Shown in pieces: positions 5,385 to 34,607 of a stretch of DNA of 64,000 bases. Numbering within the stretch: the stretch's first letter is position 1; each line of letters begins with the position of its first letter. The position numbers were made by a program, and so were the translations under genes. Under the pieces are notes generated by a model. The model did not search any database and was not told where the DNA came from. It saw only the letters and a program-made list of their open reading frames with translations. The DNA comes from an uncultured delta proteobacterium. GTDB lineage: Bacteria; Desulfobacterota; RBG-13-43-22. The DNA lies in contig CAWJJC010000017.1 in the NCBI GenBank assembly GCA_963843145.1, positions 96,001 to 160,000 of the forward strand, in the 5' to 3' direction.

Positions 5385-5435
5385 AGATCTGCAGTCTTTT
5401 TTATCACGGATATAACCGGGTGAAAAGAGATTTTC

Positions 5436-7682: not shown

Positions 7683-7718
7683 AGGCGGGCAGCAATAATA
7701 AAAGCCGGGGGCAATTGC

Positions 7719-8454: not shown

Positions 8455-8576
8455 AGCCGCATCTTATCAGAATATCGAAAAAAAGCAAGAAGACAGCGGG
8501 AATTTTATTGACTGAATTTAAATTTTAGCGGGGGATAAGGAAATAAAGGAAATAGGGGAGTAGGCTAAGGGATCGG

Positions 8577-17546: not shown

Positions 17547-18230
17547 TCAACCGTTCAGGGTACAATGGAGCGTATACCGGTACTTGGAGTAGGAAAAATT
17601 ATTCTCCAGCTTGCGGGCGGCATACCCCAGCCCTGAAAGGGTTTGTCGCAATTGCTTCTCGTCATAGAGATAAAGGGAAGACGTTCTCAGGCTCAGCTTC
17701 GGATCGTCCCGGATATTGGTAATGATGAAGGAGAGCAGTTTCCTGAAAAATTTTTTTCTCATGCCGGTCAGCAATTGGGAGATGGCGTCGACCGCTTTCG
17801 AATAACCGGGGGGGACAATGTCGGAAATAATGATTCGGGTTTTTGAGTCACAGAGTCTTTTCAGCTCCCCCAGCATGTTCTTAACTTCGTCTTCCTTCAT
17901 GTAGTGGATGACACCGTTGATAATAATTAAAGAAACCGGTTCCTTTATGTTCTCTAGCGAGTGAACTACCTGGAGGTTGGGAAAGACGCCAAACCTATTC
18001 CTCAATTGGTCTAAAAAAAATTCCGATTTATCATACAAATAAATTCTTTCGACCTTATCCTTGATCAAATGGGAAACATCCCCCAATCCGGCCCCAAAAT
18101 CCAGCACTACATCGCGTTTTGAAAAACCGAAATATTTCTGGTAGGAGTCCACAAAATAGCCGGCCCAGATCTCCATGATGCCGTGATCGATTTTTGTTGA
18201 ACTGAAATGTTGATCCCACTCGGAAGGCAT
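17547..18230 (-). CDS. Class I SAM-dependent methyltransferase
   Basis: VLDFGAGLG motif I, NGVIHY. Confidence 0.8.
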   Translation of the reverse strand: MPSEWDQHFSSTKIDHGIMEIWAGYFVDSYQKYFGFSKRDVVLDFGAGLGDVSHLIKDKVERIYLYDKSEFFLDQLRNRFGVFPNLQVVHSLENIKEPVSLIIINGVIHYMKEDEVKNMLGELKRLCDSKTRIIISDIVPPGYSKAVDAISQLLTGMRKKFFRKLLSFIITNIRDDPKLSLRTSSLYLYDEKQLRQTLSGLGYAARKLENNFSYSKYRYTLHCTLNG

Positions 18231-18490: not shown

Positions 18491-21256
18491 CTATTCACCC
18501 GGTTCAGGTTTTCCACGCCTCCGGGCCTTCCAACCCCAAACGAGCAGGGCGGAAAGAGTGACCAAGGTGACGGCCAAGCCCAGGTAGAAAGGATAGAAAC
18601 GGAAAATAAATTCAACCCGGTGCTCCCCCTTGGGTACATAAAGGCCCCGGAGGCCGTAATTGACTTTCAGGACGGGGGCGGGATGGGTATCGATCTCGGC
18701 CTTCCAAAAGGGGGAATAGGTATCGCTGAGGACCAGGAATTTATTTTGGTCCGACCTGGTTATGACTTTTATATAACGAGGAGAATACTGAAGCAGCGAG
18801 GCCTCCCGGGTGGAAAAGGAGGACTCCGGGGGCTCCCGGTAGCCCGGGGGGAACTGAGTTATCAGGAGGGTCTTCCGGGGGTCTAGATTTTCCAGGTGTT
18901 CCAGCAACTCGAGCTCATCTGAAATGGCTCTCGCCTTGCCGATCATAAAGGCGCGGGGGAGATAGGCGCGGTTGTAATACACCCCTGGTCCCTGCGGTTG
19001 AAAACGACGGAAGAGCAGGGTCTGGAGGTCCTGATGATTGATCAGGAGTTTTCCAATCACTAAGCCCTCCAGGCCGGAAACAGCCTGCAGTGATATCTTG
19101 GCGGTTTCAACGGAGGGTTTTAACTGGGCGGCAAATTCGTAGGCATGTCCCTGGTATCCTTCTCCGGGAATATCCCAAGAATCGACCACCCGGGCTTTCT
19201 GGTGGGCACCGTTCAAGCCCGGGCGGTCAATAGCCCATTCGGCGGTTTCGAGGCCGGCCCGCACCGGGATCCGGAGGGAGGAACCGTCCGGCTTATCCAG
19301 AATAATCCAAGCCACGGTCCGGCCCTGGGGCACGGCGGAGGAATGGGTTAAAAAGGATTGAACCGTTAGTTGCGAAACGGAGGTCGGCTGGGGCAGGTCA
19401 AACTCCCGATCACCGAACTTTCCTCCGATTTTAATGATTATCGCTTCTGGTGGAGGGTGCGGAGAGGCACCAATAAAATATTTGACATTCAACAAATCCA
19501 AGAGCAGGGGGTTTTGATCAACTCGTTTAAAAACCTCCAGATATTCCCTGGGGATGACTGTGTGAACATATCCCAGGAGGTCGGACAGGTCGTAGGGGCA
19601 GATGCCATTCTGATAGCAGATGAGGGAGGACAACCAATCATCCGTATTGTCTATCCGGTACGGGGAATGATCCTGCCTGAGTTGGGCGACGATAGTTTTT
19701 GCCAGGGGCACTTCCGACCGACTGGGATCCTTCCCTGAATAACCGCCCTCCACCCAGGCCAGCAGCAGTAAATCCACGCTGACCAGCAAGATCAGGACCC
19801 CTTTGATCCCGGTAAGGGAATGGGACCGATTTCTGAACCATACCAGGGAATAGAAAGCCGCCCAAAAAAATAAAAACCAAAGAAAATCTTTTTTGAGTAT
19901 CTTCCACCATCCCCAAAAATCCCGCCCGGCTTCCTGGCCGGGCAGGGCAAATCCCACCAGGACCAGACTGGTTACGCCCCCCGCAAGGGCCAGCCAGAGC
20001 AGCCCGTAAAGTGACCTGAACCGCGTCGGCTGTGAGCTAGGGTCGTCGGGTTCGTCCAAGAAACGTTGCGTACCAAATCCAGCCAATACAGCCAGGGGAA
20101 AGGTAGTAAGGATGATAAATTTAGCCGGGATCCGAAATTGATTGAGCCCGGGCAGGTAATCGTAAAGGAGCTTATAAAGGGGAGTGGCGTTGCCTAAGGC
20201 GGCGATAAAAGAAAAAAAGGCTAACAGGCCCAGAAAAGTAATCCGCTTATCCTTGGATTGAATAAGCGCCCAAAGGGCCAGGAGTAAAGGGATCAGACCG
20301 ACATAGCCGAATTCCTCATCGACGGCCTCGGCGGTCCAAATCGTGTAGCCCGGGATCAAGAAATGCACCAGGTTCAAAATATGAAAGGGGAAAAGGGTAT
20401 TCCATTCATAAGAACGGGTCCCATGATAGGTGGCCAGACTGGTGGATAATAAGGGCCACAACTGTATGGCTGAAAATCCCAGGCAGAATATACCCAGGAC
20501 CCCGAAATAGCCGGCCTCCCGGGCCAGGTCTTTCCAGGCCCGCACCCACAACCTTAGGAAAAGGGTAAAGAGAAAATAGGCGGCCAGATACAACAGCAGA
20601 AAATAAAAAATATTGGGATGACCGGCGAGAAAGGAGAAGGATAGGAAAAGGCCGGCCAGGGCCGCCCAAAGGGCTCGTCTTTGAAGAAGGGCCTTGTCTA
20701 AGAAGTAGAGGACCAACGGGAACCAGGTCACCGTTTCAACGATATTTCTTATACTGGCCCGGCCTACCAGGAAACCTCCGGAAATAAAACAGAGGGAGCC
20801 GACCAGGGATGCTACCCGAGACAAGCCTAACTGTCGGATATAGAGATAGGCAAAGACCCCGCCCAGCCAGAAATGCAAGGCGTGGATCCAGGAAAGCAGA
20901 TAAGGGTTAAAAAAATGGGGGGTTAAAATCCCGGTCAACAGATCCAGCGGATAAAAGACCCCAAAGTCCTCGGCCAGGTACGGCATCCCGGTCCCGATAA
21001 AGGCATCCCAAAGGACCAGGATCCCCTGGCGCAGGTGTTGATAAAAAAAGGCCCGCTGGGGAGCGAGCTCGACAAAGTCCCCGGCCCAATAAAGTGTTTC
21101 TCCCGGAAGGAGAAAGGCCCGGAATTTAAAAAGAACAAAGACCGCCAGGAAACACAGTACCCAGACATCATTTCGGTAGGCGGAGGATCTGTTTTTCGGC
21201 GATGAATTTACCCCTCCCGTGGTCTGGATCTTGTCGCTCCCTGATTTATATTTCAA
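18491..21256 (-). CDS. YfhO-family GT-C membrane glycosyltransferase
   Basis: 921 aa, many TM helices, LWD...G.P, AGHP, FRIPAK, C-terminal YSPFWKAEID...GEHRVEF plus a TM helix. Confidence 0.85.
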   Translation of the reverse strand: MKYKSGSDKIQTTGGVNSSPKNRSSAYRNDVWVLCFLAVFVLFKFRAFLLPGETLYWAGDFVELAPQRAFFYQHLRQGILVLWDAFIGTGMPYLAEDFGVFYPLDLLTGILTPHFFNPYLLSWIHALHFWLGGVFAYLYIRQLGLSRVASLVGSLCFISGGFLVGRASIRNIVETVTWFPLVLYFLDKALLQRRALWAALAGLFLSFSFLAGHPNIFYFLLLYLAAYFLFTLFLRLWVRAWKDLAREAGYFGVLGIFCLGFSAIQLWPLLSTSLATYHGTRSYEWNTLFPFHILNLVHFLIPGYTIWTAEAVDEEFGYVGLIPLLLALWALIQSKDKRITFLGLLAFFSFIAALGNATPLYKLLYDYLPGLNQFRIPAKFIILTTFPLAVLAGFGTQRFLDEPDDPSSQPTRFRSLYGLLWLALAGGVTSLVLVGFALPGQEAGRDFWGWWKILKKDFLWFLFFWAAFYSLVWFRNRSHSLTGIKGVLILLVSVDLLLLAWVEGGYSGKDPSRSEVPLAKTIVAQLRQDHSPYRIDNTDDWLSSLICYQNGICPYDLSDLLGYVHTVIPREYLEVFKRVDQNPLLLDLLNVKYFIGASPHPPPEAIIIKIGGKFGDREFDLPQPTSVSQLTVQSFLTHSSAVPQGRTVAWIILDKPDGSSLRIPVRAGLETAEWAIDRPGLNGAHQKARVVDSWDIPGEGYQGHAYEFAAQLKPSVETAKISLQAVSGLEGLVIGKLLINHQDLQTLLFRRFQPQGPGVYYNRAYLPRAFMIGKARAISDELELLEHLENLDPRKTLLITQFPPGYREPPESSFSTREASLLQYSPRYIKVITRSDQNKFLVLSDTYSPFWKAEIDTHPAPVLKVNYGLRGLYVPKGEHRVEFIFRFYPFYLGLAVTLVTLSALLVWGWKARRRGKPEPGE

Positions 21257-21268
21257 CTTTTTAGGCCT

Positions 21269-21985
21269 CTAAAGCTGAAATCCGGCCTTGACGGCATCGT
21301 TCCGAAACATCTTTACGGTTTCCAGTGAATATTCGGTTAGATCTTTCCCGGTTAAATTTAATTTCTTAAGTATATCTACCGTACTGGTAATAATGTGGCA
21401 GCCGATCGAGTTAGCCTGGAAGACATTGAGGAGCTCGCGAGGGCTGGCCCAAATCAATTCTTGCTGGGGATGAGGGCGCAAAATTTCAACCGCGGCGGCC
21501 ATCAGGGGCAGGGGATCACGCCCGGTATCGGCAATTCTCCCGGCGAAAACGGAAATGAACGAAGGGGCCCCACCGGCCAAGGCCCGGCTGACGTCGATCA
21601 CCTGGGACAAGGTCAAAAGGGCCGTTACATTCAGCTTGACCCCCTGAGTAGATAATTCCGTGATGAGGGGTACGGAGGATTGACCAAGCGTGTTGGTGAC
21701 TGGTATCTTGACATAGACATTCTCACCCCAACCGCGTATGAGCAGCGCCTGGCGTTTCATTTCCTCGAACTCGTCTGAAAATACCTCGAAGGAGATCGGC
21801 CGGTCCGGGATACTCCTCAGGATGTCCAAGGCGAAGGCCGGGTAATCACTGATCCCGGCTTTACGCATCAGAGTCGGATTGGTAGTAAAACCCTGGATGA
21901 GGGGGTTGCGGTACATTTCGATCATCTCGGATTTAACCGCTCCGTCAGCGAAGATCTTGACTGTTAGTTCGGAAAAGCTGCTCAT
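21269..21985 (-). CDS. Transaldolase (small, cluster-dedicated)
   Basis: IFADGA, GFTTNPTL, VKIP Schiff-base Lys, NVT, GRI.D, WAS.R. Confidence 0.9.
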   Translation of the reverse strand: MSSFSELTVKIFADGAVKSEMIEMYRNPLIQGFTTNPTLMRKAGISDYPAFALDILRSIPDRPISFEVFSDEFEEMKRQALLIRGWGENVYVKIPVTNTLGQSSVPLITELSTQGVKLNVTALLTLSQVIDVSRALAGGAPSFISVFAGRIADTGRDPLPLMAAAVEILRPHPQQELIWASPRELLNVFQANSIGCHIITSTVDILKKLNLTGKDLTEYSLETVKMFRNDAVKAGFQL

Positions 21986-22524
21986 AGGTTTGTCTCCTCA
22001 CATTGATTTAGAATGATCGACAGCGCTTCCGTCAAGGTATTGACTCTATAATTCGGTTGATCGGGCTGTTTTTCATTGTATTCGTAATTAACAAAGATCG
22101 TCCGGCAGCCGGCCCGCCGTCCGGCTTCAATATCCTTCCAGCGGTCACCGATCAGGAAGCTGGCCGCCAGGTCAATATGGTAGCGCTGAGCGCCTTGAAG
22201 GATCAGGCCCGGTTCCGGTTTGCGGCACCGGCAATGATCCTCCGTGTCGTGGTAACAGGTGAGGATATCATCCAAAGGCAGCTCCCGGAGGAGAAAGCGA
22301 TGTATCGCTTCAACCCCTTCTCGGGTCTGCACCCCTCGAGCCACGTCAGGTTGATTAGTGACCACGACCAACAGGTAGCCGGCTTCCTTGAGTGTCGGTA
22401 ACACCGACCGGACTTCATCCGGTATAACCAATTCGCTCAGGTTGGAAGGGGGGTACGGTTTGGCCTCTCTGACAATAGCCTGATTGATGACGCCATCCCG
22501 ATCCAGAAAAACGGCTTTAGGCAT
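21982..22524 (-). CDS. gmhB: Heptose-bisphosphate phosphatase (HAD-IIIA, GmhB-like)
   Basis: FLDRDGVIN, VTNQ, C.H...C.CRKP.PG, IGDR..D. Confidence 0.85.
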   Translation of the reverse strand: MPKAVFLDRDGVINQAIVREAKPYPPSNLSELVIPDEVRSVLPTLKEAGYLLVVVTNQPDVARGVQTREGVEAIHRFLLRELPLDDILTCYHDTEDHCRCRKPEPGLILQGAQRYHIDLAASFLIGDRWKDIEAGRRAGCRTIFVNYEYNEKQPDQPNYRVNTLTEALSIILNQCEETNL

Positions 22525-22558
22525 ACGGATTATTTTTCAATGAAACCCATTAAACCTA

Positions 22559-23167
22559 CTAGATTTTGTCGGACGTTTCACTTTCCCATTTGGTTTGAGC
22601 CGCCTTAAGCCGGGGATGGGAAACCAGAAGGTGCCAGAGTACCGCTTGAAAGGCCTCGGTATGGGGAGTGCTATGATTGGAGTTGACGGTTGGGATAATA
22701 ACACAGGCATCCGCCGTCCGGGCGGTGAATCCGCCGTCCCTGCCCACCACCCCACAAATTCTTGCCCCCACGGCTTGGGCGTACTGTAGAGCGGAAATCA
22801 GGTTGGGGCTGATATTTCTCTCCGCGTCTCCCCCGCCGACGGAGAAAACCAGAATCAAGTCCTGTTTCCTTAACCGGCTGGTCCGCAGCCATTCCACAAA
22901 AACACTCGACCATCCGTCGTCGTTGGTCCTGGCCGTCAGTTCGGAAACGTTATCCGTCGGGGCGTAGGCTTCCATTCCGGTAATTTTCCGGAAATCATTG
23001 ACGGCATGGGAGGCATTGGCGGCGCTTCCACCCACTCCCAGGATAAATAGACGCCCATCCTGGTCCCGGGTGTCGACCATCAGTCGAACTACCTTTTCGA
23101 TCGAATCCGGATCCAGTTGTTCTACAACCTTTTTAGCCTCAGCCAGATATTCCGCTACGAACCCCAT
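22559..23167 (-). CDS. SIS-domain phosphosugar isomerase (GmhA-like)
   Basis: GVGGSAANASH, TARTND.G, P..EA.Q; diverged from the canonical GmhA GNGGS motif. Confidence 0.85.
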   Translation of the reverse strand: MGFVAEYLAEAKKVVEQLDPDSIEKVVRLMVDTRDQDGRLFILGVGGSAANASHAVNDFRKITGMEAYAPTDNVSELTARTNDDGWSSVFVEWLRTSRLRKQDLILVFSVGGGDAERNISPNLISALQYAQAVGARICGVVGRDGGFTARTADACVIIPTVNSNHSTPHTEAFQAVLWHLLVSHPRLKAAQTKWESETSDKI

Positions 23168-23169
23168 GG

Positions 23170-23889
23170 TTAGCCATTCCCCTTCCTTAATTTTTGCTCA
23201 GCGACGAATCGCTTCAGGTCCTCCAATCCCTGCCAGGAACCGATTTCGTAAAACCTCTGCCCCACCTCGAAGGCGCCTAGTTCCCCCTCTTTCAGGAGGG
23301 ATTGGTACAAGTCGGCGAGGTCCGAGGGTTGCCCCGCCGGAAGTCGGTCAAAGGCCTTTCCCTGGAAAGCCCCCAGTCCGTAATCGATATGTTCCATGGC
23401 CGGGGTTCGGGTTTGTTTATCATAAGCGATAATTTTTCCCTTCCGGAACTCAACATTACTTCTGTCCCAGAGGCCCTGGTTGTGCAAAACAGTCATCAAG
23501 GCCAGCTTTTCGCTGTCAATGAAGGCCTGGTGGACGGCTCGAAAGTCGCAAGGAAGATAGGAATCCCCGTAGAGAACAAAGAAAGTCTGACCCAAGAGGG
23601 GCAAGGCCATTTTGACGGCCCCCCCCGTCCCCAGAAGCGGCCCCCGTTCAAAGGAATAATCCGCCTGCAGTCCGAACTGATTCCCGTTACGCACATAGTC
23701 TTTGATCAGCTCACCCAGATACCCGGCACAGATCACTACCTGCTGAACCCCCTGGGATTGTAACAAGCGCAATTGATGCGCGATAAAGGGTTCCCCCTCG
23801 ATAGGGATCAGGGCCTTGGGGATCTTTTCCGTCATAGGCCGGAGCCGGGTAGCCAACCCCCCGGCCAGAATGGCAACCGGAAGCAGCAT
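23170..23889 (-). CDS. Sugar-1-phosphate nucleotidyltransferase (HddC-like)
   Basis: ILAGGLATRLRP...PK, LGTGGA, YGD. Confidence 0.88.
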   Translation of the reverse strand: MLLPVAILAGGLATRLRPMTEKIPKALIPIEGEPFIAHQLRLLQSQGVQQVVICAGYLGELIKDYVRNGNQFGLQADYSFERGPLLGTGGAVKMALPLLGQTFFVLYGDSYLPCDFRAVHQAFIDSEKLALMTVLHNQGLWDRSNVEFRKGKIIAYDKQTRTPAMEHIDYGLGAFQGKAFDRLPAGQPSDLADLYQSLLKEGELGAFEVGQRFYEIGSWQGLEDLKRFVAEQKLRKGNG

Positions 23890-24866
23890 TAGAGCAGGAT
23901 CTTGGTCCCTTCGAAATCGAACCGGAAGCGGACCTCTTCCAGGCCGGCCTTGGCCAAGGCCTGTCGCAACTTTCTTCGTTCCCGGGTATAGAATAAAAGA
24001 AACCCGCCGCCCCCGGCCCCGACCAGCTTTCCCCCCAGGGCTCCCTGAGCCCGGGCCAGGTCATACCACTCGTTTATCTGGGGATTGCTCATGCCACCCG
24101 AACGCTTCTTTTTATGCTCCCAGTGCTCATGGAGAATCTCTCCGAATTCATCCGTCTTGCCTTGTTCCAAGACCTTTTGGCTGCGAAAACCCAACTCTTT
24201 GACATAGTGCAGGTTGTTCAGCATCTCTTGATCCGATTCCTGGGTTCGGGTGTTCTGGTCCTGGAGGATGGCCCCGGCGCTGCGGGAAAACCCGGTAAAG
24301 AACAGCAATAAATTGTCCTCCAGGTCAAATAGTGTTTCCATGCCGATTTGAAGGGGAACGGCCTCTACCCGGTCATCGGAATGATAGCGAAAGGCCGTAA
24401 TCCCTCCGAAAGCCGCGATATACTGATCCTGTTTACCGATCGGTTCCCCCAGTTTATTAATTTCAATGTCGCAGGCCAACTCTGCCAGCTCACCGGGATG
24501 AATAAGTCGACGGCGATGGGCATAGAGGGCCTTGAGCAGGGCGGTGGTAAAACTTCCGGAAGATCCCAAGCCGGTTCCCGCCGGGATGTCGGCCAGGGTG
24601 GTAATTTCAATCTGCGGCGTATTCAGTTTCATCATCCGCAGGGCCTCCCGGATAATGGGATGATGGACCTCGTCCACTTGGTCCACCTGCTCCAGCTTGG
24701 AATATTTAAGGAAAATTCCGGGCGTAAAGGGACGCAAGACGGTGACATAGACATAGCGGTCAATAGCGGCGGCCATCAAAAAACCGCCGTACTGGCGATA
24801 ATAGGAAGGCAGGTCGGTCCCCCCCCCACCGAGGGTAATGCGCAAGGGACTACGCGTGATAATCAT
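23889..24866 (-). CDS. GHMP sugar-phosphate kinase (HddA-like)
   Basis: PLRITLGGGGTD, GTGLGSS, GKQDQY, GAGGGG. Confidence 0.9.
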   Translation of the reverse strand: MIITRSPLRITLGGGGTDLPSYYRQYGGFLMAAAIDRYVYVTVLRPFTPGIFLKYSKLEQVDQVDEVHHPIIREALRMMKLNTPQIEITTLADIPAGTGLGSSGSFTTALLKALYAHRRRLIHPGELAELACDIEINKLGEPIGKQDQYIAAFGGITAFRYHSDDRVEAVPLQIGMETLFDLEDNLLLFFTGFSRSAGAILQDQNTRTQESDQEMLNNLHYVKELGFRSQKVLEQGKTDEFGEILHEHWEHKKKRSGGMSNPQINEWYDLARAQGALGGKLVGAGGGGFLLFYTRERRKLRQALAKAGLEEVRFRFDFEGTKILL

Positions 24867-25869
24867 AGCCGGACTCGGAGTAAATTTTTTTCACGATGGC
24901 CAGGGCCGCCAGGGCCTCCTGCAGGCCGGCCGCCGGCGTTCGATTCAGTCGGATGTCGTCCAAAAATTCTTCAAACTCCAAACGCCAGGAATGATCACCG
25001 CGGGGGTATTCCCAGATGGTCGTTTCCGGCGGTCCCATCTCGGGAAGCATCCGGTAATAGGCCAGTCGCTCCACCCCGTAGCTTCCCCCCAAACCCTCGA
25101 TCTGGACTTTGGCGTTTTTTCCGTACATTTCAAAGGAAAACATATTCTTCCATTCGGTACAACTGACATGCAGAAAGGCGATTTGCCGGCGGGGAGTTTT
25201 CAGCAGCATAAACCCGTTGTCCTCCACCGGCATCTGCCAGTAATACGTATGGGCAAAACCGGATACTTCCTCAAAATCACCTAAAAACCAGCGGGCCAGA
25301 TCGATCAGATGAACCCCCTGGTCTATCAACTCTCCCCCGCCGGACCGGGCCGGATCGGCGCGCCATTCCTGATCATACCCCGGGCGCCCGCCATGCCCGT
25401 ATCGTCCCCGGACGAACATCATCTCTCCCAACACCCCGGCCTCAAACAGCTCCCGGGCTTTTTGCAGGGCGGGGTGGTAACGATGATTAAAACCGACTCG
25501 AACCTGCACCCCGGTCCGGCGGGCGGCTTTTTCCAGGGCTTCCAATTCTCCCATGGTCCGGGCCGCCGGTTTTTCTACCAGAACATGTTTGCCCGCCAGA
25601 ACAGCGGTTTGGGTGACCGGGGCCAAGGCGTCATTGGTGGTCGCCACGATGACGATATTGACATCTTTCAGCGCGACGGCTTCCTGCCAGTCGGGAACGG
25701 CTCTTGCTCCGGGAAAAATCCGGGCCAACCCCTCGGCTCTATCCGAAATCAAGTCGGAGCAGGCCAGCAACCGGGCCCCGGTTAAGGCCGCGGCCCGCTT
25801 TTGTCCAATCGACCCGCAACCGATGATCGCCACTCCTAAGGGGGGTTGGGGATCCATCATTCTTCCCAT
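24850..25869 (-). CDS. Gfo/Idh/MocA family oxidoreductase
   Basis: IIGCGSIG, HVLVEKP, GFNHR, GGG.LID.GVH. Confidence 0.9.
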   Translation of the reverse strand: MGRMMDPQPPLGVAIIGCGSIGQKRAAALTGARLLACSDLISDRAEGLARIFPGARAVPDWQEAVALKDVNIVIVATTNDALAPVTQTAVLAGKHVLVEKPAARTMGELEALEKAARRTGVQVRVGFNHRYHPALQKARELFEAGVLGEMMFVRGRYGHGGRPGYDQEWRADPARSGGGELIDQGVHLIDLARWFLGDFEEVSGFAHTYYWQMPVEDNGFMLLKTPRRQIAFLHVSCTEWKNMFSFEMYGKNAKVQIEGLGGSYGVERLAYYRMLPEMGPPETTIWEYPRGDHSWRLEFEEFLDDIRLNRTPAAGLQEALAALAIVKKIYSESGYDYHA

Positions 25870-26720
25870 CCCAGCCCACGGTCCTGGGGCAGGATCCGGC
25901 GTAAGGTATAAAGATCCGTTCCTTGCAATTCGGCTAAATGGCCCGGCAGTGCCTCCCAGGGATCCCAGACCGCGCTAATCAGTTTCCCGGTAATTCCATC
26001 GCCGGCCGGGGAAGCTAAAAACAGACAGAGGGCCACGGCCCGTTCCCGATGGTCCTCCTTGCTCTGGAGAACCCTTTGGGCTTGTTCATATTCCCTGAAC
26101 CCGGCCAAATCCGGACCGGCCTCCAGAATGGCGGTTATTAAGGAGGTGCCCATCGCCCCGGGCGCCACACAGGTGATATCAATACCCAACGACCTGTTTT
26201 CCTCGGCCAGGATTTCGCTGAATCGCACCAAAGCAGTCTTAGCGGTGGCATAGGCCGAAAAATGGGGGCGGGGACCGGCACCCCCTCCTCCGGAAAGATT
26301 GATAATTTTCCCCCGCCCGCGGCTGGCCATCCTGGGAATAAACAGACGGCAAAGGAGAGCCGGGGCCAGCAGATCGATCTGCAGGGTTTCCTTCCAGGCC
26401 GCCCAATCATTTTCCCCCAAAGGCCCGATAGGTCCTTGAACCGCCGCGTTGTTAATGAGGACATCCAGCCCTTCAAAGTGCTTGGTTGTTTCCGCTAAAA
26501 TTTGAATGGGAGATTCCGGATCTTTCAGATCAACGCTTAGGGTAAGGATTTTTTGATTCGGTCGAAGGGGGAAAGTCGCTACCAGGCCTTGCATTTTTTC
26601 GGCCGATCGGGCAACCAGGATCAGATGGGCCCCCTCCATCCAGAAGGCCTTGGCCAAGCCGGCCCCCAAACCTTGAGACGCCCCGGTGATTAAGACCGTC
26701 TGTCCTTCGAAACGATTCAT
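25857..26720 (-). CDS. SDR family oxidoreductase
   Basis: TGASQGLG, NNAA, YATAK; ATG at 26720 overlaps the upstream stop. Confidence 0.9.
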   Translation of the reverse strand: MNRFEGQTVLITGASQGLGAGLAKAFWMEGAHLILVARSAEKMQGLVATFPLRPNQKILTLSVDLKDPESPIQILAETTKHFEGLDVLINNAAVQGPIGPLGENDWAAWKETLQIDLLAPALLCRLFIPRMASRGRGKIINLSGGGGAGPRPHFSAYATAKTALVRFSEILAEENRSLGIDITCVAPGAMGTSLITAILEAGPDLAGFREYEQAQRVLQSKEDHRERAVALCLFLASPAGDGITGKLISAVWDPWEALPGHLAELQGTDLYTLRRILPQDRGLGWEE

Positions 26721-27691
26721 GGCCGGGCCTCCAGAAGCCAGGGATTGGCTTGCAGATAGGCTAATGTCTTTTCGATCCCCTTGCGAATCGAGACCTGTGG
26801 GACCCAGCCCAGCGCCCGAATTTTGCTGCAATCAAGAAAAATTAAGGGGCTGTCACCTACCCAGCCGCGTGTCCCGCCGGTGTAGGACAACCGGGGTTTT
26901 AACCCCAGCTTTCCGGTGATCCAGGCAATCGAGTCGTTGACTTCACAATACTCGTTCGTGCCCAGGTTAAAAATATTGACCCGGTCGGATGATTTTTGGA
27001 TGGCCTGAAATATGGCGTCCAGGCAGTCTTGCACATAGAGGTAGGACTTGCGCTGGTGACCATCCCCCAAGACTTTCAAATGGTCGGGCTTGGACCGCAG
27101 CGATTGGTAAAAATCAAAAATGTGCCCGTGAGAGTATCGTTCGCCCAATATGGAGACAAACCGAAAAATAAAGCCTTGAAAGCCAAAGCCCTCGCAGTAG
27201 GCCTCGATCAGCCCTTCACCCGCCAGTTTGGAGGCGCCGTAAAGAGAGGTCTGGGTCGGAAAGGGGGCGTCTTCCGGCGTGGGAAAGATTTTCGGTTCCC
27301 CGTACACCGAACCGGTGGAGGAGAAGACGATCCGCTTTATTCCATTGACCCTCATCGCCTCCAGGACGTTGAAAGTGGCCAGCGTGTTTTGTTCGAGGTC
27401 TTTCCGGGGGTGCCGGGTGCCGAAACGGACATCCGCGTTGGCGGCCAGATGAAAGACCAGATCACATCCCGACATGGCCCGCGTCAAGGCCGGCAGATCC
27501 AAGACATCGTCTCGGAAGAGGGTAAAATTAGAATTTTGCCGGGCGGATTGCAGGTAAGGGTCAAGTCCGGTGGAAAAATTATCATAGCCAACCACCCGGA
27601 TCCCCCTTTGAAGCCAACGATCCACCAAATGACTTCCGATGAATCCGGCGGCCCCGGTTATAAATATCTTCTCAAAGCCTGGAATGTTCAT
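26717..27691 (-). CDS. NAD-dependent epimerase/dehydratase
   Basis: TGAAGFIGSH, HLAA, SSTGSVYG, YGASK; start at ATG 27691 (MNIPGFEK). Confidence 0.9.
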   Translation of the reverse strand: MNIPGFEKIFITGAAGFIGSHLVDRWLQRGIRVVGYDNFSTGLDPYLQSARQNSNFTLFRDDVLDLPALTRAMSGCDLVFHLAANADVRFGTRHPRKDLEQNTLATFNVLEAMRVNGIKRIVFSSTGSVYGEPKIFPTPEDAPFPTQTSLYGASKLAGEGLIEAYCEGFGFQGFIFRFVSILGERYSHGHIFDFYQSLRSKPDHLKVLGDGHQRKSYLYVQDCLDAIFQAIQKSSDRVNIFNLGTNEYCEVNDSIAWITGKLGLKPRLSYTGGTRGWVGDSPLIFLDCSKIRALGWVPQVSIRKGIEKTLAYLQANPWLLEARP

Positions 27692-28700
27692 GTTCAGGCA
27701 GGATTGGGTTAGCGGATTCCCAGGGTTTGGGCCCAGGCGGTTGATCAAAACCATAAGCCGACTCAACAATGTACATGGGCCGCTGTCGGACTTCATCATA
27801 AACCCGGCCCAGATATTGGCCAAGAATGCCCATACTTAAAAGCTGCATTCCGGCCAGGAAAGTGATCAGGATCACCAGGGTAGGATTCCCCCAGGGAATT
27901 TCCAGATGCATCAAGCGCAGAATCAAATACAACAACCCGGTCAAAAAGGATATCCCGGAAGTCATAAAGCCTAAAAAGGAAATGACGGTTAGAGGAAATC
28001 TGGAGAACCCGAACAGTCCATTCATCCCGATTAAAAAAGATCCGGTCCAGCGATTATAGTGGCCACTCCCGGCTAGCCGTTGGTCACGATCGTAGAGGAC
28101 AGCACTTTGTTTAAATCCGATCAAGGCCACCAAGCCGCGTAGGAAGCCATGAGATTCCTTTAATTTTAACAAATGAGTTACCGCCCGCCGACTTAACAGT
28201 CTGAAATCGCCAGTATTCCTGGGAATATGCACATTGGCAATCCGGTTGATCACCCAATAGCCCAAATAGGAAATAATTCTTTTGGGGAGGGTTTCCCCTT
28301 GGCGGGTCCTCCTTTGGGCATAGACGACCTCGGCCCCGTCGGTTTGCCATTTCTCGATGAGTTTAGGAATCAACTCCGGGGGATCCTGCAAATCGGCATC
28401 AATCACGACACACACCTCCCCGCCGGCGTGCCTTAATCCACCCAGGGTGGCCGCGGGTTGCCCAAATCGTCGGGAAAACCGAAGCAGTTTGATCCGCGGG
28501 TTACCGCCCCTCCAAGACAAAATGATGTTCTCCGTGCGGTCGGTTGATGGATCCAGGGCGAAGATGATCTCATAGTCGCACCCCGGGATGGATTGAAGCG
28601 CCGGGATTAACCTTTCCAGGAGAGGCGTTACGTTGTTTTCCTCGTTGTAGACGGGGACGATAACGGAACACTGAAAGTCTTTTCCTTGATCAATCGCCAT
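27672..28700 (-). CDS. GtrB-like GT2 bactoprenol glycosyltransferase
   Basis: VPVYNEE, SRRFG, DADLQDPPE, GDFRL, two C-terminal TM helices, RP.Y.V. Confidence 0.9.
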   Translation of the reverse strand: MAIDQGKDFQCSVIVPVYNEENNVTPLLERLIPALQSIPGCDYEIIFALDPSTDRTENIILSWRGGNPRIKLLRFSRRFGQPAATLGGLRHAGGEVCVVIDADLQDPPELIPKLIEKWQTDGAEVVYAQRRTRQGETLPKRIISYLGYWVINRIANVHIPRNTGDFRLLSRRAVTHLLKLKESHGFLRGLVALIGFKQSAVLYDRDQRLAGSGHYNRWTGSFLIGMNGLFGFSRFPLTVISFLGFMTSGISFLTGLLYLILRLMHLEIPWGNPTLVILITFLAGMQLLSMGILGQYLGRVYDEVRQRPMYIVESAYGFDQPPGPKPWESANPILPEHEHSRL

Positions 28701-28871
28701 GGTCCAAATCTTTCAACAGTGAGTTTGAAAGGTCGGCCGGAGTGCAGTTTCCTGGAAACCCCTTCTAACCCCCCCGCCAAACGGTTCCTAAGTCTTACTC
28801 TCGAATCCCCTTCTTTTCAAGGACTTTATGGATTAGACACCGGCCTTTTTCCTCCTCGAACCGGCATCCCC

Positions 28872-29303
28872 TTATCGGGTTAATTTGGTAAAGTGTGAAT
28901 AAACTTGTTGATTGAACGTGACAAACTTGTGGGCTAGAAAATTAAGAACCAGCATAATTCCGGTAGTAATGATGCGGGCCGGCATAGGCCACAGCTTTCC
29001 CCACTCAACCAGGACAGCCATCAACACGACGGAACACAATAGAGCGAGCGCGCAAATGAGAGAATATACGCCGATCTGAGCGATGATTTGCTGGGTTTGG
29101 TCCTTAAAGGTAATGAATTTGTTCAGCAGATAATTAATCATCGCCCCCAAAGAGAAAGAGAGCATGACCGCGAGCAGATAAGGAAAGCCTCCCAACACAT
29201 TCAAAGAATAAAAAGAGAGCCAGTCGATCCCGGTGGCTGTTCCTCCCATGACCACGTAGATTGCAAATTGTCGAGATGTCGATTTCTTAAGAAGTAACTT
29301 CAT
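28872..29303 (-). CDS. GtrA family flippase
   Basis: 143 aa, four TM helices, NY.LNK..TF and NF..HK..TF repeats. Confidence 0.88.
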   Translation of the reverse strand: MKLLLKKSTSRQFAIYVVMGGTATGIDWLSFYSLNVLGGFPYLLAVMLSFSLGAMINYLLNKFITFKDQTQQIIAQIGVYSLICALALLCSVVLMAVLVEWGKLWPMPARIITTGIMLVLNFLAHKFVTFNQQVYSHFTKLTR

Positions 29304-29307
29304 ACCG

Positions 29308-29568
29308 TTAGGACAAAAGTCTCCAATAAACCATCTGGGAATTTTTGATCCCTCTCTTAAGATAGTTCCACCCGGCGGGATCCCCCAGGATCTTCCTTTT
29401 GACTCTCCCCTTGCACCGGTCCCAGTAAAAAGAGATCAGCGGAAGGACAAACCAACCCCAAGTACCCATAAAAGCCCGATGGCCAAAAGAGGTCCCATAA
29501 TACCACAAAGGCCAACCGGCCGCGACATATAAATAGAGCAACCGGCCGATCACGATCGGCCGGCTCAA
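29308..29568 (-). pseudogene. C-terminal remnant of a GT-C transferase
   Basis: W.LWYYGTSFGHRAF matches WYLWYFGWSFGHRAF in 34727-36820. Confidence 0.6.
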
Positions 29569-29612
29569 AGACCAGAGCGGCTGGGATAATGATAAGGATT
29601 AGCTGCCGGCGG

Positions 29613-31725
29613 TCAGGGGGTCGTCTTCCTAATCAACGGAAACCAAAATCCATAGGCCCGAATCACCTCGGCTGAACGGCTGAAGGGCCCCAGGACGCTT
29701 CCGGAAATTTGGACGGTGTTGGTCTGAGGGGTCAGCCAGGGGAAGCCCGGATTGGGAGCGGCGGCATAGGTTACCCGCACTTCTCCCGAGACCGGGACCG
29801 CACCCGACCAGGATATCTTCCCCCCCGCAAAGGTCGGCGGCAACCCCGAGGTAGCCGCCAGAGTTCCAGGGAAAACGGTCAGAGTCGAAGGAGGGGTATC
29901 TTCCAGCAAAGCCAGGGCGTCTTTGTTTCCGGTGTTTTGAAGCCGGATGGTATAGAAAAGCGTTTGATCTCCTTGAAAAAGCCGAGGAGAGGCGTATTTG
30001 TAGGAGGAGACCAGGACCGGGGCCGGTGAGGTCAGGACCGTGGTAAAAGTCTGTCCCCATTCTTCGTACCCGTAGGGTTCCTGGTTACCGATTCGATCCC
30101 GGGCCCGGACCCGAAAAAAATAGGTCTGTCCATGACCGCCGCTAAAAGAAGCGGAAGTCTGAGTGGTATTCAGAAGAAAATCCCTCCAGCCCCCTTCATA
30201 GCCCTCGCGGACCTGGACATCATAAGAGCCAATGCCGCTCACGTCATCCGTCCCCGACCAGGATAGGGAAAACGGGCTAGCGGACACTGTGGGCAGAGCG
30301 GTCATTTGGGATTGGGGAGCGTTATGATCAAGCGCCTTGAGGGCCTTATCCACCTGGATTCGGGATTTGGTCAAACCGTTACGGGGATCTTTAATCGGGA
30401 CCCCAGAGTCCTGAAGGGCCGCCAGGATCTGATCGACGGTGGCCTGGGGGGCCGCCTGTTTAAGGATGGCCCAGGTTCCGGAAACATGCGGGGCGGCCAG
30501 AGAGGTCCCGCTGTAGCCCAGGACCCAGCCGCCTCCAATCGTGGTCGAAAAAACATCCGCCCCGGGGGCCAGGAGGGAGAGGTATTCGGCGCTGTTGGAA
30601 AAATCGGCTATCTGATCGCCCTTGGTGGTGCCCCCCACACTAATAGCCGAAGAAATACAGGCGGGATAGGATAGTTGTTGAGAGTCCCCATTGTTCCCGG
30701 AAGGGACAACCGAAGCAATATCGATCGACCTCAGCAGATCAAACATAAATTTCGTAGAGGGATTGTCCGCATCACAGAAGGCCTGGTTAGGGTAAAGGCC
30801 ACCGCGAACGCTGATATTGACAGCGGCAATATTGTAGGCCCCCCTTAATCCATATACATAGTCGAGTGCTGCGATCTGATCGGATTTATAAGATTCGATC
30901 CCATTGGCCGTCTGGGAGAATATCTGGACCGGCAGGAGGCTGGCTCCTTTGGCCACCCCGTTATTGGAAGGATCCGCCGCTGTTGGCCGCGACGATGCCG
31001 GCAATATAGGTCCCGTGATCGCAGAGAGCCGTGGAAGAACAATTGACGCCGGCCGGTGAGTTACAGGAATTGGAAAAGCAGGCCCCGCCCACGAGCCTCC
31101 CGGAGAAGTAGGGATTGCTAAAATCTACCCCGGTGTCCAGCACGGCTACGGTCCAGCCGCGGCCGTCCAACCCCAGCGACCAGGCCGGAGGGACCCCGAT
31201 CAAGGGGATCGTTTCATTCAAGGCTGGTTGGCTTAAACTGTCCTCCTCGATATCGGCGATCAGGGGATGGTTTTCCAGTAAGGCCAGGGCCCGGTGGTCC
31301 AGTTCCAGGGCCAGGAAGGGGATATAGTTAAATCTTCTTAACTCCCGAACAAGTTGTCCCCCCAGGTCATTCAAGATCTGATCCTGCCGGCGGGCGATGT
31401 CCGCCCGCTGTTCCGCAACCTCTTTTTCCCCGGACAAACGGCCTTCCGCCACGGAGTTGCTCTTGAGCCGGACAATAGCCCTGACCGTCCCTTTATTTTG
31501 CGCCTGATCGAGAAGTTTCGAAAAGCGGTGGGCCTTGGGTGGGATCGCCGTCGGGGCCGAGGAAATTGTCCCGGACAAATCCAACGCGTATCCGGGGGTT
31601 GAAACCCAGAAGGCAAAACCCGCCAATAAGACAATCCAGAGGAAGATCTCCGGACACCAGCGGAAATTCCGATTCCGGCTTTTTAACCCGGAATCCGATA
31701 ATTCTTTTTTGTTCTTTTTCTCCAT
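29613..31725 (-). CDS. Secreted S8 (subtilisin-like) peptidase with FN3/Ig-like C-terminal domains, frameshifted near 30965
   Basis: Signal and propeptide, VLDTG (Asp) and HGT (His) in the first frame; GTS.AAPHV (Ser) in the second frame; ends FWFPLIRK. Confidence 0.85.
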
Positions 31726-31847
31726 TGCCCCCCTCGTTAAACAGAATATCTAAGTCCCCATTTGATGATTCCCTACCCCTAACGACTTGAGTATCGGGGA
31801 TATGGGTAATGAAACCGGCGTCTAGTGCTTTCAACCGGCAAACCAAA

Positions 31848-34607
31848 TCAATCACCTGTTTTAGCCCCCAGCACTTCCAATTCATAGATCGACCACCAGT
31901 AAACCGAGTCTGTCCCGGTTTGAACCAACTTGAGATGCCGGATCGCCTGTGGAGGAAAGCGATAATTGTTCCTTTTAATTACCCGGCCTTGACACCAGGC
32001 ATATTCGGCAAAGGTTGTTGCCCGGATCTCACGCCATTCGGCGGCATCCTGGGAAACCATTATCTTCAGGTTACGGGGAGAATCGTACAAGGAATTATTT
32101 AAAAACAAGGAAAGGCCGTTTACCGAATAGGTTCCGCCCAGACCTACTTGAAAGACCATTCCAGGCTCCTGGCCCCGAAGACTCCCCCACCGGGTCGAGG
32201 GGTTCCCGTCAACAGCCAGACCGGCTTCCTTATTGTTCGTATTGGAAAAAACGTTGAATCGAGACGGTGAAAGGCGGAAGCCTTCCCTTGGGGGAAACAA
32301 GGTAACGAGTTTTAAATTCTTACCATCGGGATTTTCTCCGGACTTTTCCAACTCCCCAAGATATAAGGCTCGCCCTAATAATTGATGGGCTTCTTCATTT
32401 TCCGGGGCCAGACTGATGGCCGTCTGGGCCCACTTGATGACCTCCGGCCAGTTGACCTGCCTTTTTCGAAACGACGAGTTTGTGCCTGGAAAAAACGGAT
32501 GAGGCCCGGTGGGATCATCCTCCCAGCGTTCCAGGGCTTGTCCGGCCCGAGCCAGGGCTGCCTCCACCTCCGGCCTGGGCGGGTCCGGTTGTTCCAGGGT
32601 TTCATAGATAAACAATTCCGCAATGGTCCAGGTTTTGTTTGGATCTTCCGGTTGAAGGCGATTGGTTAAGCGCAGATAGCGCCCTTCCCGGGGCGGGAAA
32701 CTAATTTGGATTCGGGGATTCTCATCCAAACGGGGCCGTCCTCCAACCCAAGTCATTCCGGTTAAGAAATACTGATCCCGGTTCACGGTATTCCAAACCT
32801 GCCCGTCCCGGGAAATCTCCAGCCTTAGGGAGCCGGCCTCTCTGGACATTCCCGGCCAGGGCAGGAGGGATACCCGGCCCAAATTCCGGACCCGGCCCAG
32901 ATCCACCTGCACCCATTCCCCAGGTTTTTCGGGGATTTCCCAGCCGGTCAGGATATCCCGGTCCTTCATCATTGCGGCATTTTCAGTGTTTTGACTTGTG
33001 GTAATCCGCCAATCCTTACTGGAAATGGCCCGGAGAGGAAAAGCCGGTTCCCTAAAATTGTACCAGACCACGTAATTCCCTTGCTCAAAACGGTCGAAAC
33101 TGCCGCCGATCAATTGCAAAGAGGCGGCCATGACCTCCGGCGGGGGATTGCCCAGTTCCCGATGCGTAATGATCGCCACCTTCCCGGCCGGAGCCTGATC
33201 CACGGCCCTGAGGTAATCATAATTGCGTTGGCCGGAATAATCGGCACAGATAATTTTTTCCTGGCTTTCAAACGTCAGGGGTTGGGAGATCCGGTTGTCG
33301 GCGTAGGCATATTGGATACCACGACCCTTCAAAGCCTTGATCAGCCCATCCACCGGACGATAGGGGTGGTCCTGATATTCCTGGAGGAAGAGAAAATGGA
33401 GAAAGAGGTTAAATCCAAAGAGGACGATCATCGCCCCGGCCCCAAGGCCCCGATGATAAGCCAGGATCTTATGCAGCCAAACCGCTATCAATATGGAAAA
33501 GGGAGCATAAAAAGTCAGTGAATAACGGAGAGACCCGGTGGCTCCCTGTTGACTGGTAGAAAAAACCAGGACCAAAATCCAGAAAACCGCCGCAACCAGG
33601 TCGATCGGTTCTTGAAAAGGATTGCGAAGGGAAATAATCCTTTGACCCCAGCGAAAAATAACGATCAGGGATAACACAAAGGGGGGCAAATAATAAACGG
33701 CCCAAATTGACCAGGCCAAAACCGACGGAACGCTCGGAAGCACGCTTTGGCCATCCCACCAGTCCCCCAAAAAAGACTGAAAAAAAGAATACCGAAGCAC
33801 ACCATAGATACGGGTCGGCAATTGATCAAAAATACCGATGCCTGTATGCCCGAAAAACCCGAAGGTGGAAAAATTATGCCGGATTTCCCAAAGCCAAAAG
33901 GGTAAGGATCCCAGTAGAAAACCGGCAAAACCCACCCCGGGAATCCGAGTAAGAAAGGTGCGCGGCCGGGCCATAGCCAGCCCGAGTCCGCAGGCCAGGA
34001 GAAAGGGAACCGATAACAGACTAGACCACCAGGCGAGACCGGCCAGAATTCCAATAAGACCGGCCAGGGCTACCTTATTTCTGGACGGCTGAAACGCCAG
34101 ATGGCAGGTGCCAAAAAGTATAAAACCGCCAAAGGCACAGGCTTCCTCATGGCCCCCGGTGGCTAATAGGGCAATGACGCTTAGGTAGAGAGGCGAAAAA
34201 GCCATGAAGGCGGCGGATAGCAGTCCGACCACCCATCCCCCGACCAGGGTTCCAATCTTATTGATGCAAACGATCAGAAAAGCAATGACTAAAATTCCGG
34301 TCAGATGAAGCGAAAAGGCCGTTGAGCCGAAGAGAAGAAATAGAAAACTGGCCAGATAGGCTTCCAAAGCCCCCATGTACGGCTGCCCCCAGAAAAAAAG
34401 CTGGAATTCGCCCCTTAAAATATGGAGAGCCATATTTCCGGTTACCGCCTCGTCATAGTAGGTCTCCGCGAAAACGGGGGAATGGGCCATGACGTAGCGG
34501 ATCACAAAATGAACTACGAGCAGGACCGACAATCCAAAACAAACCAGTGTGTGATGGGGGCACGTTTTAATTTTTATGGCCATAAGATTCTTGGTCAAGG
34601 GCGGCAC
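31848..34607 (-). CDS. GT-C (PMT/ArnT-like) membrane glycosyltransferase fused to two discoidin (F5/8C) domains
   Basis: DEA..G.MA..I and FFWGQPYMG loop, many TM helices, then D....T.W...QVDLG and W.I.EL discoidin motifs twice. Confidence 0.75.
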   Translation of the reverse strand: MPPLTKNLMAIKIKTCPHHTLVCFGLSVLLVVHFVIRYVMAHSPVFAETYYDEAVTGNMALHILRGEFQLFFWGQPYMGALEAYLASFLFLLFGSTAFSLHLTGILVIAFLIVCINKIGTLVGGWVVGLLSAAFMAFSPLYLSVIALLATGGHEEACAFGGFILFGTCHLAFQPSRNKVALAGLIGILAGLAWWSSLLSVPFLLACGLGLAMARPRTFLTRIPGVGFAGFLLGSLPFWLWEIRHNFSTFGFFGHTGIGIFDQLPTRIYGVLRYSFFQSFLGDWWDGQSVLPSVPSVLAWSIWAVYYLPPFVLSLIVIFRWGQRIISLRNPFQEPIDLVAAVFWILVLVFSTSQQGATGSLRYSLTFYAPFSILIAVWLHKILAYHRGLGAGAMIVLFGFNLFLHFLFLQEYQDHPYRPVDGLIKALKGRGIQYAYADNRISQPLTFESQEKIICADYSGQRNYDYLRAVDQAPAGKVAIITHRELGNPPPEVMAASLQLIGGSFDRFEQGNYVVWYNFREPAFPLRAISSKDWRITTSQNTENAAMMKDRDILTGWEIPEKPGEWVQVDLGRVRNLGRVSLLPWPGMSREAGSLRLEISRDGQVWNTVNRDQYFLTGMTWVGGRPRLDENPRIQISFPPREGRYLRLTNRLQPEDPNKTWTIAELFIYETLEQPDPPRPEVEAALARAGQALERWEDDPTGPHPFFPGTNSSFRKRQVNWPEVIKWAQTAISLAPENEEAHQLLGRALYLGELEKSGENPDGKNLKLVTLFPPREGFRLSPSRFNVFSNTNNKEAGLAVDGNPSTRWGSLRGQEPGMVFQVGLGGTYSVNGLSLFLNNSLYDSPRNLKIMVSQDAAEWREIRATTFAEYAWCQGRVIKRNNYRFPPQAIRHLKLVQTGTDSVYWWSIYELEVLGAKTGD

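Follow-up and report, generated by a model that had tools for sequence, protein, structure and literature searches.

A transaldolase-containing sugar cassette joined to Gtr-type lipid-carrier genes in an uncultured delta proteobacterium

The DNA analysed here, a stretch of 64,000 nucleotides from an uncultured delta proteobacterium (positions 96,001–160,000 of contig CAWJJC010000017.1, assembly GCA_963843145.1; hereafter the window), carries a minus-strand operon in which sugar activation of the kind known from lincomycin (Lmb) or heptose biosynthesis is joined to lipid-carrier glycosylation of the Gtr type. In the order of transcription it encodes a small GtrA-family membrane protein, a family 2 glycosyltransferase (GT2), an epimerase, a short-chain dehydrogenase/reductase (SDR), a Gfo/Idh/MocA oxidoreductase, a GHMP kinase, a nucleotidyltransferase, a SIS isomerase, a HAD phosphatase, a transaldolase and a YfhO-family membrane protein of the GT-C type (Table 1); the eight genes from epimerase to transaldolase are referred to below as the cassette. 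An earlier reading of the same DNA, made without database searches (the sequence-only reading), had proposed that these genes make an eight-carbon nucleotide sugar, load it on polyprenyl phosphate and transfer it to the cell surface. All of the genes that it named were recovered as open reading frames (ORFs) with Pfam or NCBIfam matches, on the minus strand and at or near the places assigned to them, and the span of 21269–29303 given for the system contains every one of them except the YfhO gene, which starts 12 bp past the transaldolase stop. The tight coupling that it described was likewise borne out: from GT2 to YfhO, neighbouring genes overlap by as much as 20 bp or are separated by 34 bp at most, and the GtrA gene lies 171 bp upstream of the GT2 gene. 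Both the epimerase and the SDR were listed as long ORFs with TTG starts (that of the epimerase extending to 27823), in which the Pfam domains begin only at residues 52–53 and 44, respectively; ATG codons at 27691 and 26720 overlap the stops of the preceding genes, GT2 in the former case, and are therefore preferred as the likely starts. A scan for promoters and terminators returned no more sites than were found in shuffled sequence.

To judge by its distribution, the cassette is a mobile gene set that is widespread across many phyla. A scan of species-representative genomes with the cassette transaldolase yielded 80 loci (63–73% identity), in which gene presence was assessed by tblastn with the window proteins (E ≤ 1e-10, at least half of the query covered). 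Matches to the SIS protein were present in 69 of the 80 loci, to the HAD phosphatase in 60, the kinase in 51, the nucleotidyltransferase in 42, the Gfo/Idh/MocA protein in 29 (at least 50% identity), the epimerase in 28 (at least 50% identity) and the SDR in 26 (at least 38% identity). The full set of eight sugar genes was found in 18 loci and was colinear in 17; all these counts are lower bounds because many loci end at contig edges. The loci come from Acidobacteriota, Pseudomonadota, Chloroflexota, Elusimicrobiota, Omnitrophota, Chlorobiota, Planctomycetota and other phyla, the Pseudomonadota including Rhizobium panacihumi, Rhodoblastus sphagnicola, Bradyrhizobium, Pelagibacteraceae and metagenome-assembled genomes (MAGs) of Legionella and Coxiellaceae. 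Complete cassettes are also carried by plasmid 3 of Lawsonia intracellularis and by a chromid of Rhizobium jaguaris. Eleven of the 18 full cassettes have a gap of ~1.3 kb between the epimerase and SDR genes, which in both cases scanned with Pfam (L059 and L042) holds a gene of the UDP-glucose/GDP-mannose dehydrogenase (UGDH) family, and a DegT-family gene stands beside some other cassettes (e.g. L022 and L020). Within the window's own genome the cassette is, by comparison with its relatives, an accessory island: this transaldolase was found in one of 40 relatives (G028, of the same phylum, 72% identity) and in none of the three same-genus and 17 same-family genomes searched.

A variant form of the cassette was noted in four loci (L046, L070, L072 and L077), which have the SIS, HAD and transaldolase genes and in which tblastn found neither the GHMP kinase nor the nucleotidyltransferase. 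In their place L046 encodes a 550-residue fusion of cytidylyltransferase and PfkB domains, in the reverse of the HldE order, and the same ORF family is present in L072 and L077. The L046 variant resembles the CBU0674-0678 genes of Coxiella burnetii; the available text on the lipopolysaccharide O-antigen operon of that organism mentions two epimerases, a phosphoheptose isomerase and an HldE-like gene in reversed order with no assigned role, and the sugar is unnamed there (PMC5843353).

The GT2 encoded at the head of the operon is predicted to be a polyprenyl-phosphate glycosyltransferase of the GtrB type. It is similar over its full length to Synechocystis GtrB sll0501 (PDB 5EKP; 257 bits, E 2e-75, residues 9–322) and matches the solved ArnC at 121 bits; among NCBIfam models it scores 226 bits on PgfS and 132 bits on ArnC, both below the equivalog cut-offs, and it has two C-terminal transmembrane (TM) helices at residues 235–253 and 275–293 (custom hydropathy script). 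Orthologues with 53–56% identity lie no more than 10 kb from the cassette transaldolase in L012, L022, L029, L042 (partial), L049, L062, L069 and R. jaguaris (L094). Their hosts are Alpha- and Gammaproteobacteria and one Myxococcota MAG, besides the present genome, and they were seen only close to the cassette. A GtrA gene directly follows GT2 in both loci that were checked (L094 and L022). In five full-cassette genomes without an adjacent GT2, the best homologues anywhere in the genome were only 29–40% identical and none of the five contained an orthologue. That an orthologous GT2, followed by GtrA, travels with the cassette in distant phyla supports the view, in agreement with the sequence-only reading, that the cassette sugar is loaded on polyprenyl phosphate by this predicted GT2 with GtrA as its partner.

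A member of the LPG_synthase_TM family is encoded directly after the transaldolase of the Lawsonia cassette (L096, 12698–13681), and the window encodes an LPG_synthase_TM-domain protein on the plus strand at 37698–38711, 3 kb beyond the island. Such a protein may be an alternative flippase-like partner.

The last gene of the operon encodes a polytopic protein with a large extracytoplasmic domain, for which a GT-C function is predicted. Its PF09586 match, above the gathering threshold, covers only the C-terminal 80 residues, although this domain is found in all 22 full-length relatives (40–78% identity); in its predicted topology, a loop of ~380 residues separates eight N-terminal TM helices from a single one at the C terminus (custom hydropathy script). 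A search of solved structures with this protein returned no relative. As it is co-transcribed with the cassette here, it remains the best candidate for the final transferase. Matches to the window's YfhO, PMT_2-like, methyltransferase and GtrA proteins were absent from all 80 cassette loci (tblastn), and each of the GT2 loci examined encodes large polytopic proteins with 9–16 predicted helices that belong to no Pfam family and are unlike the window's YfhO by BLAST. The final transferase appears to be lineage-specific. Two adjacent membrane-protein ORFs on the plus strand (14851–15879 and 15919–17241), 35% identical to YfhO residues 16–232 and 23% identical to residues 369–809, respectively, represent a second YfhO paralogue that is either split or naturally in two parts.

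Table 1. Genes of the operon and of its immediate flanks in the window
Feature	Position	Strand	Profile match
Polytopic protein of the membrane, PMT_2-like, with a pair of F5/8 type C domains; flanks the mobile block	31848-34607	-	PF00754, 83 bits; PMT_2, 20 bits, below cut-off
Small membrane protein of the GtrA family, candidate flippase for the lipid-linked sugar	28872-29303	-	PF04138, 75 bits
GT2 of GtrB/ArnC/PgfS type, predicted polyprenyl-phosphate glycosyltransferase	27672-28700	-	PF00535, 114 bits
Extended-SDR enzyme, like epimerases/dehydratases of nucleoside diphosphate (NDP) sugars	26717-27691	-	PF01370, 165 bits; GalE, 133 bits, below cut-off
Classical SDR	25857-26720	-	PF00106, 145 bits
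Gfo/Idh/MocA oxidoreductase	24850-25869	-	PF22725, PF01408, PF02894
GHMP sugar-phosphate anomeric kinase, HddA-like	23889-24866	-	PF00288, PF08544
Sugar-1-phosphate nucleotidyltransferase	23170-23889	-	PF00483
SIS ketose/aldose phosphate isomerase, distinct GmhA-like subfamily	22559-23167	-	PF13580
HAD-IIIA phosphatase, GmhB-like	21982-22524	-	TIGR01656, 125 bits
Transaldolase of TIGR02134 type, cassette-dedicated	21269-21985	-	TIGR02134, 340 bits vs cut-off 282
YfhO-family GT-C membrane protein, 921 residues, candidate periplasmic transferase	18491-21256	-	PF09586, 53.5 bits vs cut-off 28.5
S-adenosylmethionine-dependent methyltransferase travelling with YfhO	17547-18230	-	Methyltransf_25/12

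The five core enzymes of the cassette correspond, family by family, to those of both the lincosamide octose route, with which the sequence-only reading had compared them, and the heptose route. By curated thresholds, however, the cassette is not the textbook heptose route, as the scores of its four heptose-type enzymes all fall short of the NCBIfam equivalog cut-offs for GDP-glycero-manno-heptose synthesis: the SIS protein reaches 53 bits on gmhA (cut-off 209), the GHMP kinase 167 bits on HddA (cut-off 600), the HAD phosphatase 117 bits on GmhB PRK08942 (cut-off 178) and 92 bits on a second GmhB model (cut-off 150), and the nucleotidyltransferase 86 bits on HddC (cut-off 300), with a higher score of 119 bits on MurU. 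Elsewhere the same genome carries a separate GmhA-like gene (L084) that scores 203 bits on gmhA, and the cassette transaldolase is one of three TAL_FSA paralogues. The isomerase and transaldolase of the cassette are therefore not the housekeeping copies.

The isomerase differs from GmhA at one well-defined site. In all 75 cassette copies, with minor variants, the loop reads S-V-G-G-G-[DNS]-x-E-x-N-[IV]-S-P-N, which amounts to a six-residue insertion relative to the S-T-S-G-x-S-P-N of GmhA; the short form is kept in the GmhA-like gene of the same genome and in PDB 2X3Y. We take the site of the insertion to be the GmhA loop that binds the sugar phosphate. Four residues of the cassette enzyme (His, Asp, Glu and His) align with His, Glu, Gln and His of the GmhA chain, presumably the metal-binding or catalytic positions of the Burkholderia enzyme. 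The signature is new and offers a ready annotation marker for the family, whose matches in the ESM Atlas are only to unnamed 'sugar isomerase' clusters; in the Lawsonia record, too, the cassette genes bear only generic labels ('SIS domain protein', 'galactokinase' and 'transaldolase').

Long representatives of ~390–440 residues, in which the SIS part occupies one end, are numerous in the cassette SIS family (P0241–P0390), so that fusions to neighbouring pathway enzymes are common; P0341 is a HAD–SIS fusion, and there are hints of the same in P0334 and P0353. Among 10 N-terminally extended proteins, drawn from the best 150 SIS representatives, none contained the PP-binding domain expected of an LmbN-like fusion of carrier protein and SIS domain, and several were HAD–SIS fusions or had long N-termini.

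The transaldolase retains the Asp, Asn, Glu, Lys, Asn, Thr, Phe and Arg residues that align with 3S0C and 1VPX, which we take to be the catalytic positions of the solved transaldolases. It carries the Phe that, on our understanding of the residue roles, marks normal transaldolases, as opposed to the Tyr of fructose-6-phosphate aldolases. HAD–transaldolase fusions were found in L027, P0079 and P0110.

Of the nucleotide-sugar pathways known to us, the lincosamide route of Streptomyces lincolnensis and S. caelestis is the one that also has its own transaldolase. In the available text of the sources, LmbR is described as forming octulose-8-phosphate from ribose-5-phosphate and either fructose-6-phosphate or sedoheptulose-7-phosphate (PMC5854111); LmbN, LmbP, LmbK and LmbO lead to GDP-octose, which is tailored by LmbM, LmbL, LmbZ and LmbS (PMC12945683, PMC4351081). 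Compared by families and described functions, the two systems share, besides the transaldolase, a SIS isomerase, kinase, phosphatase, nucleotidyltransferase, epimerase and NAD(P) oxidoreductases (PMC12945683, PMC4351081). The cassette, unlike the lincosamide clusters, has no aminotransferase (LmbS/CcbS), no carrier-protein domain on its isomerase and no antibiotic genes; it is spread over many phyla, and its product would go to a lipid carrier, whereas that of the lincosamide route goes to a thiol. To our knowledge, the lincosamide route is the sole nucleotide-sugar pathway with a transaldolase of its own, and a search of open-access text found no other. The available portions of the phage DNA-glycosylation literature that we found likewise contain no mention of a transaldolase.

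We tentatively propose, at somewhat less than even confidence, that the operon encodes every step between central sugar phosphates and a periplasmic modification of the cell envelope, and infer its substrates, carbon number, nucleotide, final configuration and acceptor as follows. The transaldolase would move a three-carbon unit from fructose-6-phosphate (or sedoheptulose-7-phosphate) onto an aldose phosphate, most likely ribose-5-phosphate, to give octulose-8-phosphate, which the divergent SIS isomerase would convert to the aldose. The GHMP kinase would then phosphorylate C1, the HAD-IIIA phosphatase would remove the terminal phosphate and the nucleotidyltransferase would produce an NDP-sugar, whose configuration would be altered, or which would be deoxygenated, by the epimerase, SDR and Gfo/Idh/MocA enzymes. 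The GtrB-type GT2 would transfer the sugar to undecaprenyl phosphate, GtrA would assist the passage of the lipid-linked sugar across the inner membrane and a GT-C protein, most likely the co-transcribed YfhO-family member, would attach it to a periplasm-exposed glycan or protein. Two LpxC genes (at 8577–9464 of the window and on contig C12) identify the host, on whose envelope the sequence-only reading did not comment, as a diderm, so that the acceptor should be such a periplasm-exposed glycan or protein, not a teichoic acid. The more specific proposal is that the cassette makes a nucleotide-activated eight-carbon aldose and that here, in Rhizobium and in several uncultured proteobacteria, undecaprenyl phosphate serves as the carrier of this sugar, which would join the envelope on its periplasmic face; we regard this as plausible and hold it with slightly more reserve.

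Several observations weigh against this proposal and are given here together with the alternatives on which they bear. Eight carbons are ranked only slightly ahead of seven, and this ranking draws on pathway logic and on a likeness to the Lmb enzymes that lies in families and described functions. No aminotransferase is present among the Pfam and NCBIfam assignments between 17547 and 31725, so that the product should not be lincosamine-like; the comparison with lincomycin made in the sequence-only reading thus stands for the enzyme families and falls for the sugar itself. The window also lacks the UGDH-family gene associated with 11 of the 18 full cassettes, as do L010, L031, L067, L068 and L069.

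It is possible, though held with less confidence, that the product is an unusual NDP-heptose with seven carbons, the transaldolase serving to boost or secure the supply of sedoheptulose-7-phosphate for a mobile, self-sufficient module, and the GT2, GtrA and GT-C acting as proposed above. The nearest solved relatives of the kinase and the isomerase are indeed heptose enzymes (191 bits with PDB 3K85 and 160–164 bits with WcbL for the kinase, 47 bits with GmhA for the isomerase), and the nucleotidyltransferase has HddC (5XHW, 77 bits) among its solved relatives, next to MurU (4Y7T, 91 bits); no close relative of the Gfo/Idh/MocA protein was found among solved structures (best score 94 bits). The transaldolase gives the same impression: besides the residues of a normal transaldolase, it has TIGR02134 relatives with 46–50% identity in plain sugar-catabolic contexts, in Lactobacillus, Ligilactobacillus, Treponema and on a Streptomyces plasmid (that of Streptomyces sp. 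3211, where the neighbourhood is non-Lmb). In a quick tree of low resolution (stars on 13 of 91 inner branches, many forks unsupported), the catabolic copies of Lactobacillus and Treponema nest in the same clade as the cassette copies, so that the transaldolase itself shows no clear specialisation.

The case against a heptose begins with its precursor. Sedoheptulose-7-phosphate is made by transketolase, not by transaldolase; we know of no transaldolase in the GmhA/HddA/GmhB/HddC route, and a search of open-access text found no heptose cluster containing one. Among five small cassette-bearing genomes, transketolase scored above the cut-off in three and was present in a split form in one (it was unclear in the fifth, an incomplete genome), which means that sedoheptulose-7-phosphate would be available in those genomes without a transaldolase. 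The idea that cassette genomes are unable to make sedoheptulose-7-phosphate was considered as well, and the same transketolase counts did not discriminate. The window's own genome, moreover, is already equipped with a GmhA-like gene and with two transaldolase-family genes besides that of the cassette. The GDP-D-glycero-alpha-D-manno-heptose route does share with the cassette the four families of GmhA, HddA, GmhB and HddC and the same chemical order, but the cassette differs from it in enzymes that score far below the equivalog cut-offs, in the SIS loop insertion found in every copy, in a linked and sometimes fused transaldolase and in coexisting with a separate GmhA-like gene.

An alternative that we consider unlikely is that GT2, GtrA and YfhO are a Gtr-type system of the ordinary kind, drawing on a widely used donor (UDP-glucose or UDP-GlcNAc, for instance), that the cassette sugar is used by cytoplasmic glycosyltransferases and that the adjacency of the two merely reflects packing within an island. 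The donors of the known GtrB, CsbB and PgfS enzymes are common UDP-sugars. A GT2 with at least 50% identity was found in only 7 of the 80 cassette loci, plus one partial copy, and most cassettes probably feed ordinary glycosyltransferases. The immediate context of YfhO was read from three metagenome contigs with close YfhO relatives (L115, L116 and L117), of which L115 points in the same direction. In L115 (YfhO 73% identical) the PMT2, YfhO and methyltransferase genes are contiguous, with PMT2 directly upstream of YfhO, and 10.7 kb of the window (approximately 21173–31868), comprising the peptidase pieces, GtrA, GT2 and the cassette, are absent as a clean indel. YfhO can therefore exist at that place without the cassette. 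In L116 (YfhO 88% identical), which together with the 12-bp spacing in the window speaks for a link of YfhO to the cassette, GT2 and the epimerase adjoin the 5' end of YfhO in the opposite orientation and with no GtrA between them. L117 extends over no more than the 3' end of YfhO (71% identity) and the neighbouring methyltransferase (87% identity) and carries no information on the block. With the block found at the YfhO 5' end twice and missing from it once, the block evidently moves. The methyltransferase adjoins YfhO in both L115 and L117, at 86–87% identity to that of the window. The link of YfhO to the cassette is thus weaker than that of GT2 and GtrA, and of the proposed transfer to the surface there remains a YfhO-family GT-C in the operon, its dedicated role being called into question by L115. 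Finally, a second, small GT2 (14054–14791) could supply another lipid-linked sugar and, together with other nearby GT-C-like proteins, leaves room for other pairings. This soluble protein of 245 residues is encoded with a YdjC-like protein at the edge of the island (13205–14791, plus strand), and its best matches in cassette loci (L001, L003, L011, L017, L021, L025, L059 and L064) are 26–35% identical.

What speaks for a functional connection between the cassette and the lipid-carrier genes is that the stop of GT2 overlaps the start of the epimerase, that GT2 orthologues were seen only near the cassette across such distant hosts, none turning up elsewhere in the five cassette genomes without an adjacent copy, and that GtrA follows GT2 in both loci checked. 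The Gtr-type systems of Shigella (GtrA/GtrB/GtrC), Bacillus and Listeria (CsbB(GtlA)/GtcA/YfhO(GtlB)) and Streptococcus mutans (Pgf) offer the same combination of a GtrB-type GT2 with two C-terminal helices, GtrA and a YfhO GT-C, here in one operon. Unlike in those systems, the donor here apparently comes from a dedicated higher-sugar cassette and is not UDP-Glc or UDP-GlcNAc, and the host is a diderm, as indicated by LpxC, so that the acceptor would not be lipoteichoic acid. The Arn pathway (Ugd, ArnA, ArnB, ArnC and ArnT) is similar in being a nucleotide-sugar tailoring operon that ends in an ArnC-type GT2 (the window's GT2 matches ArnC at 121–132 bits) and a GT-C on the periplasmic face of a diderm; it differs in that the sugar in the window would originate from a transaldolase reaction, that formyltransferase and aminotransferase genes are missing here and that the GT-C is of the YfhO and not the ArnT type.

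Least probable of all is a scheme in which the transaldolase acceptor is a hexose-6-phosphate or arabinose-5-phosphate, giving a nine-carbon or a differently configured eight-carbon sugar, or in which the product is no glycosyl donor: no sequence feature fixes the acceptor, and aldolase reactions on arabinose-5-phosphate yielding another octulose are described in the available part of one source (PMC5854111), but positive evidence for such a scheme is lacking and the trio of kinase, phosphatase and nucleotidyltransferase is the standard route to a glycosyl donor.

New observations from the window are the complete coupling of GtrA, GtrB and GT-C in a diderm, the linkage of GT2 and GtrA across phyla, the loop signature of the isomerase and the indel of the block. 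The statement in the sequence-only reading that no polyprenyl-phosphate-linked octose or heptose has been described agrees with the open-access literature searched, in which we found no description of a surface octose, of a transaldolase-containing nucleotide-sugar cassette beyond the lincosamides or of a heptose-loaded GtrB. Should the sugar be an octose, it would be the first to be borne on a lipid carrier. Surface glycans would then contain a class of sugars so far known only from an antibiotic, and a cell-surface octose pathway would be common to many bacterial phyla, the lincomycin sugar route being a specialised offshoot of it. Hundreds of species have the cassette, including root symbionts and intracellular bacteria, and the pair of GT2 and GtrA provides an experimental handle, combining a soluble pathway with a single membrane enzyme whose lipid-linked product can be read by mass spectrometry.

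The peptidase pieces within the mobile block are two overlapping minus-strand ORFs (30961–31725 and 29613–31004, together 29613–31725) that encode a subtilase with Peptidase_S8 and fn3 domains. They jointly cover one S8 profile, and the homologue in L019 is contiguous; the split is probably a frameshift or an assembly error. Upstream of the island, the segment at 3966–9464 encodes an NtrY/NtrX-like sensor kinase and sigma-54 activator, a DUF4390 protein and the first of the two LpxC copies, which has MltA and the NtrY/NtrX-like pair as neighbours.

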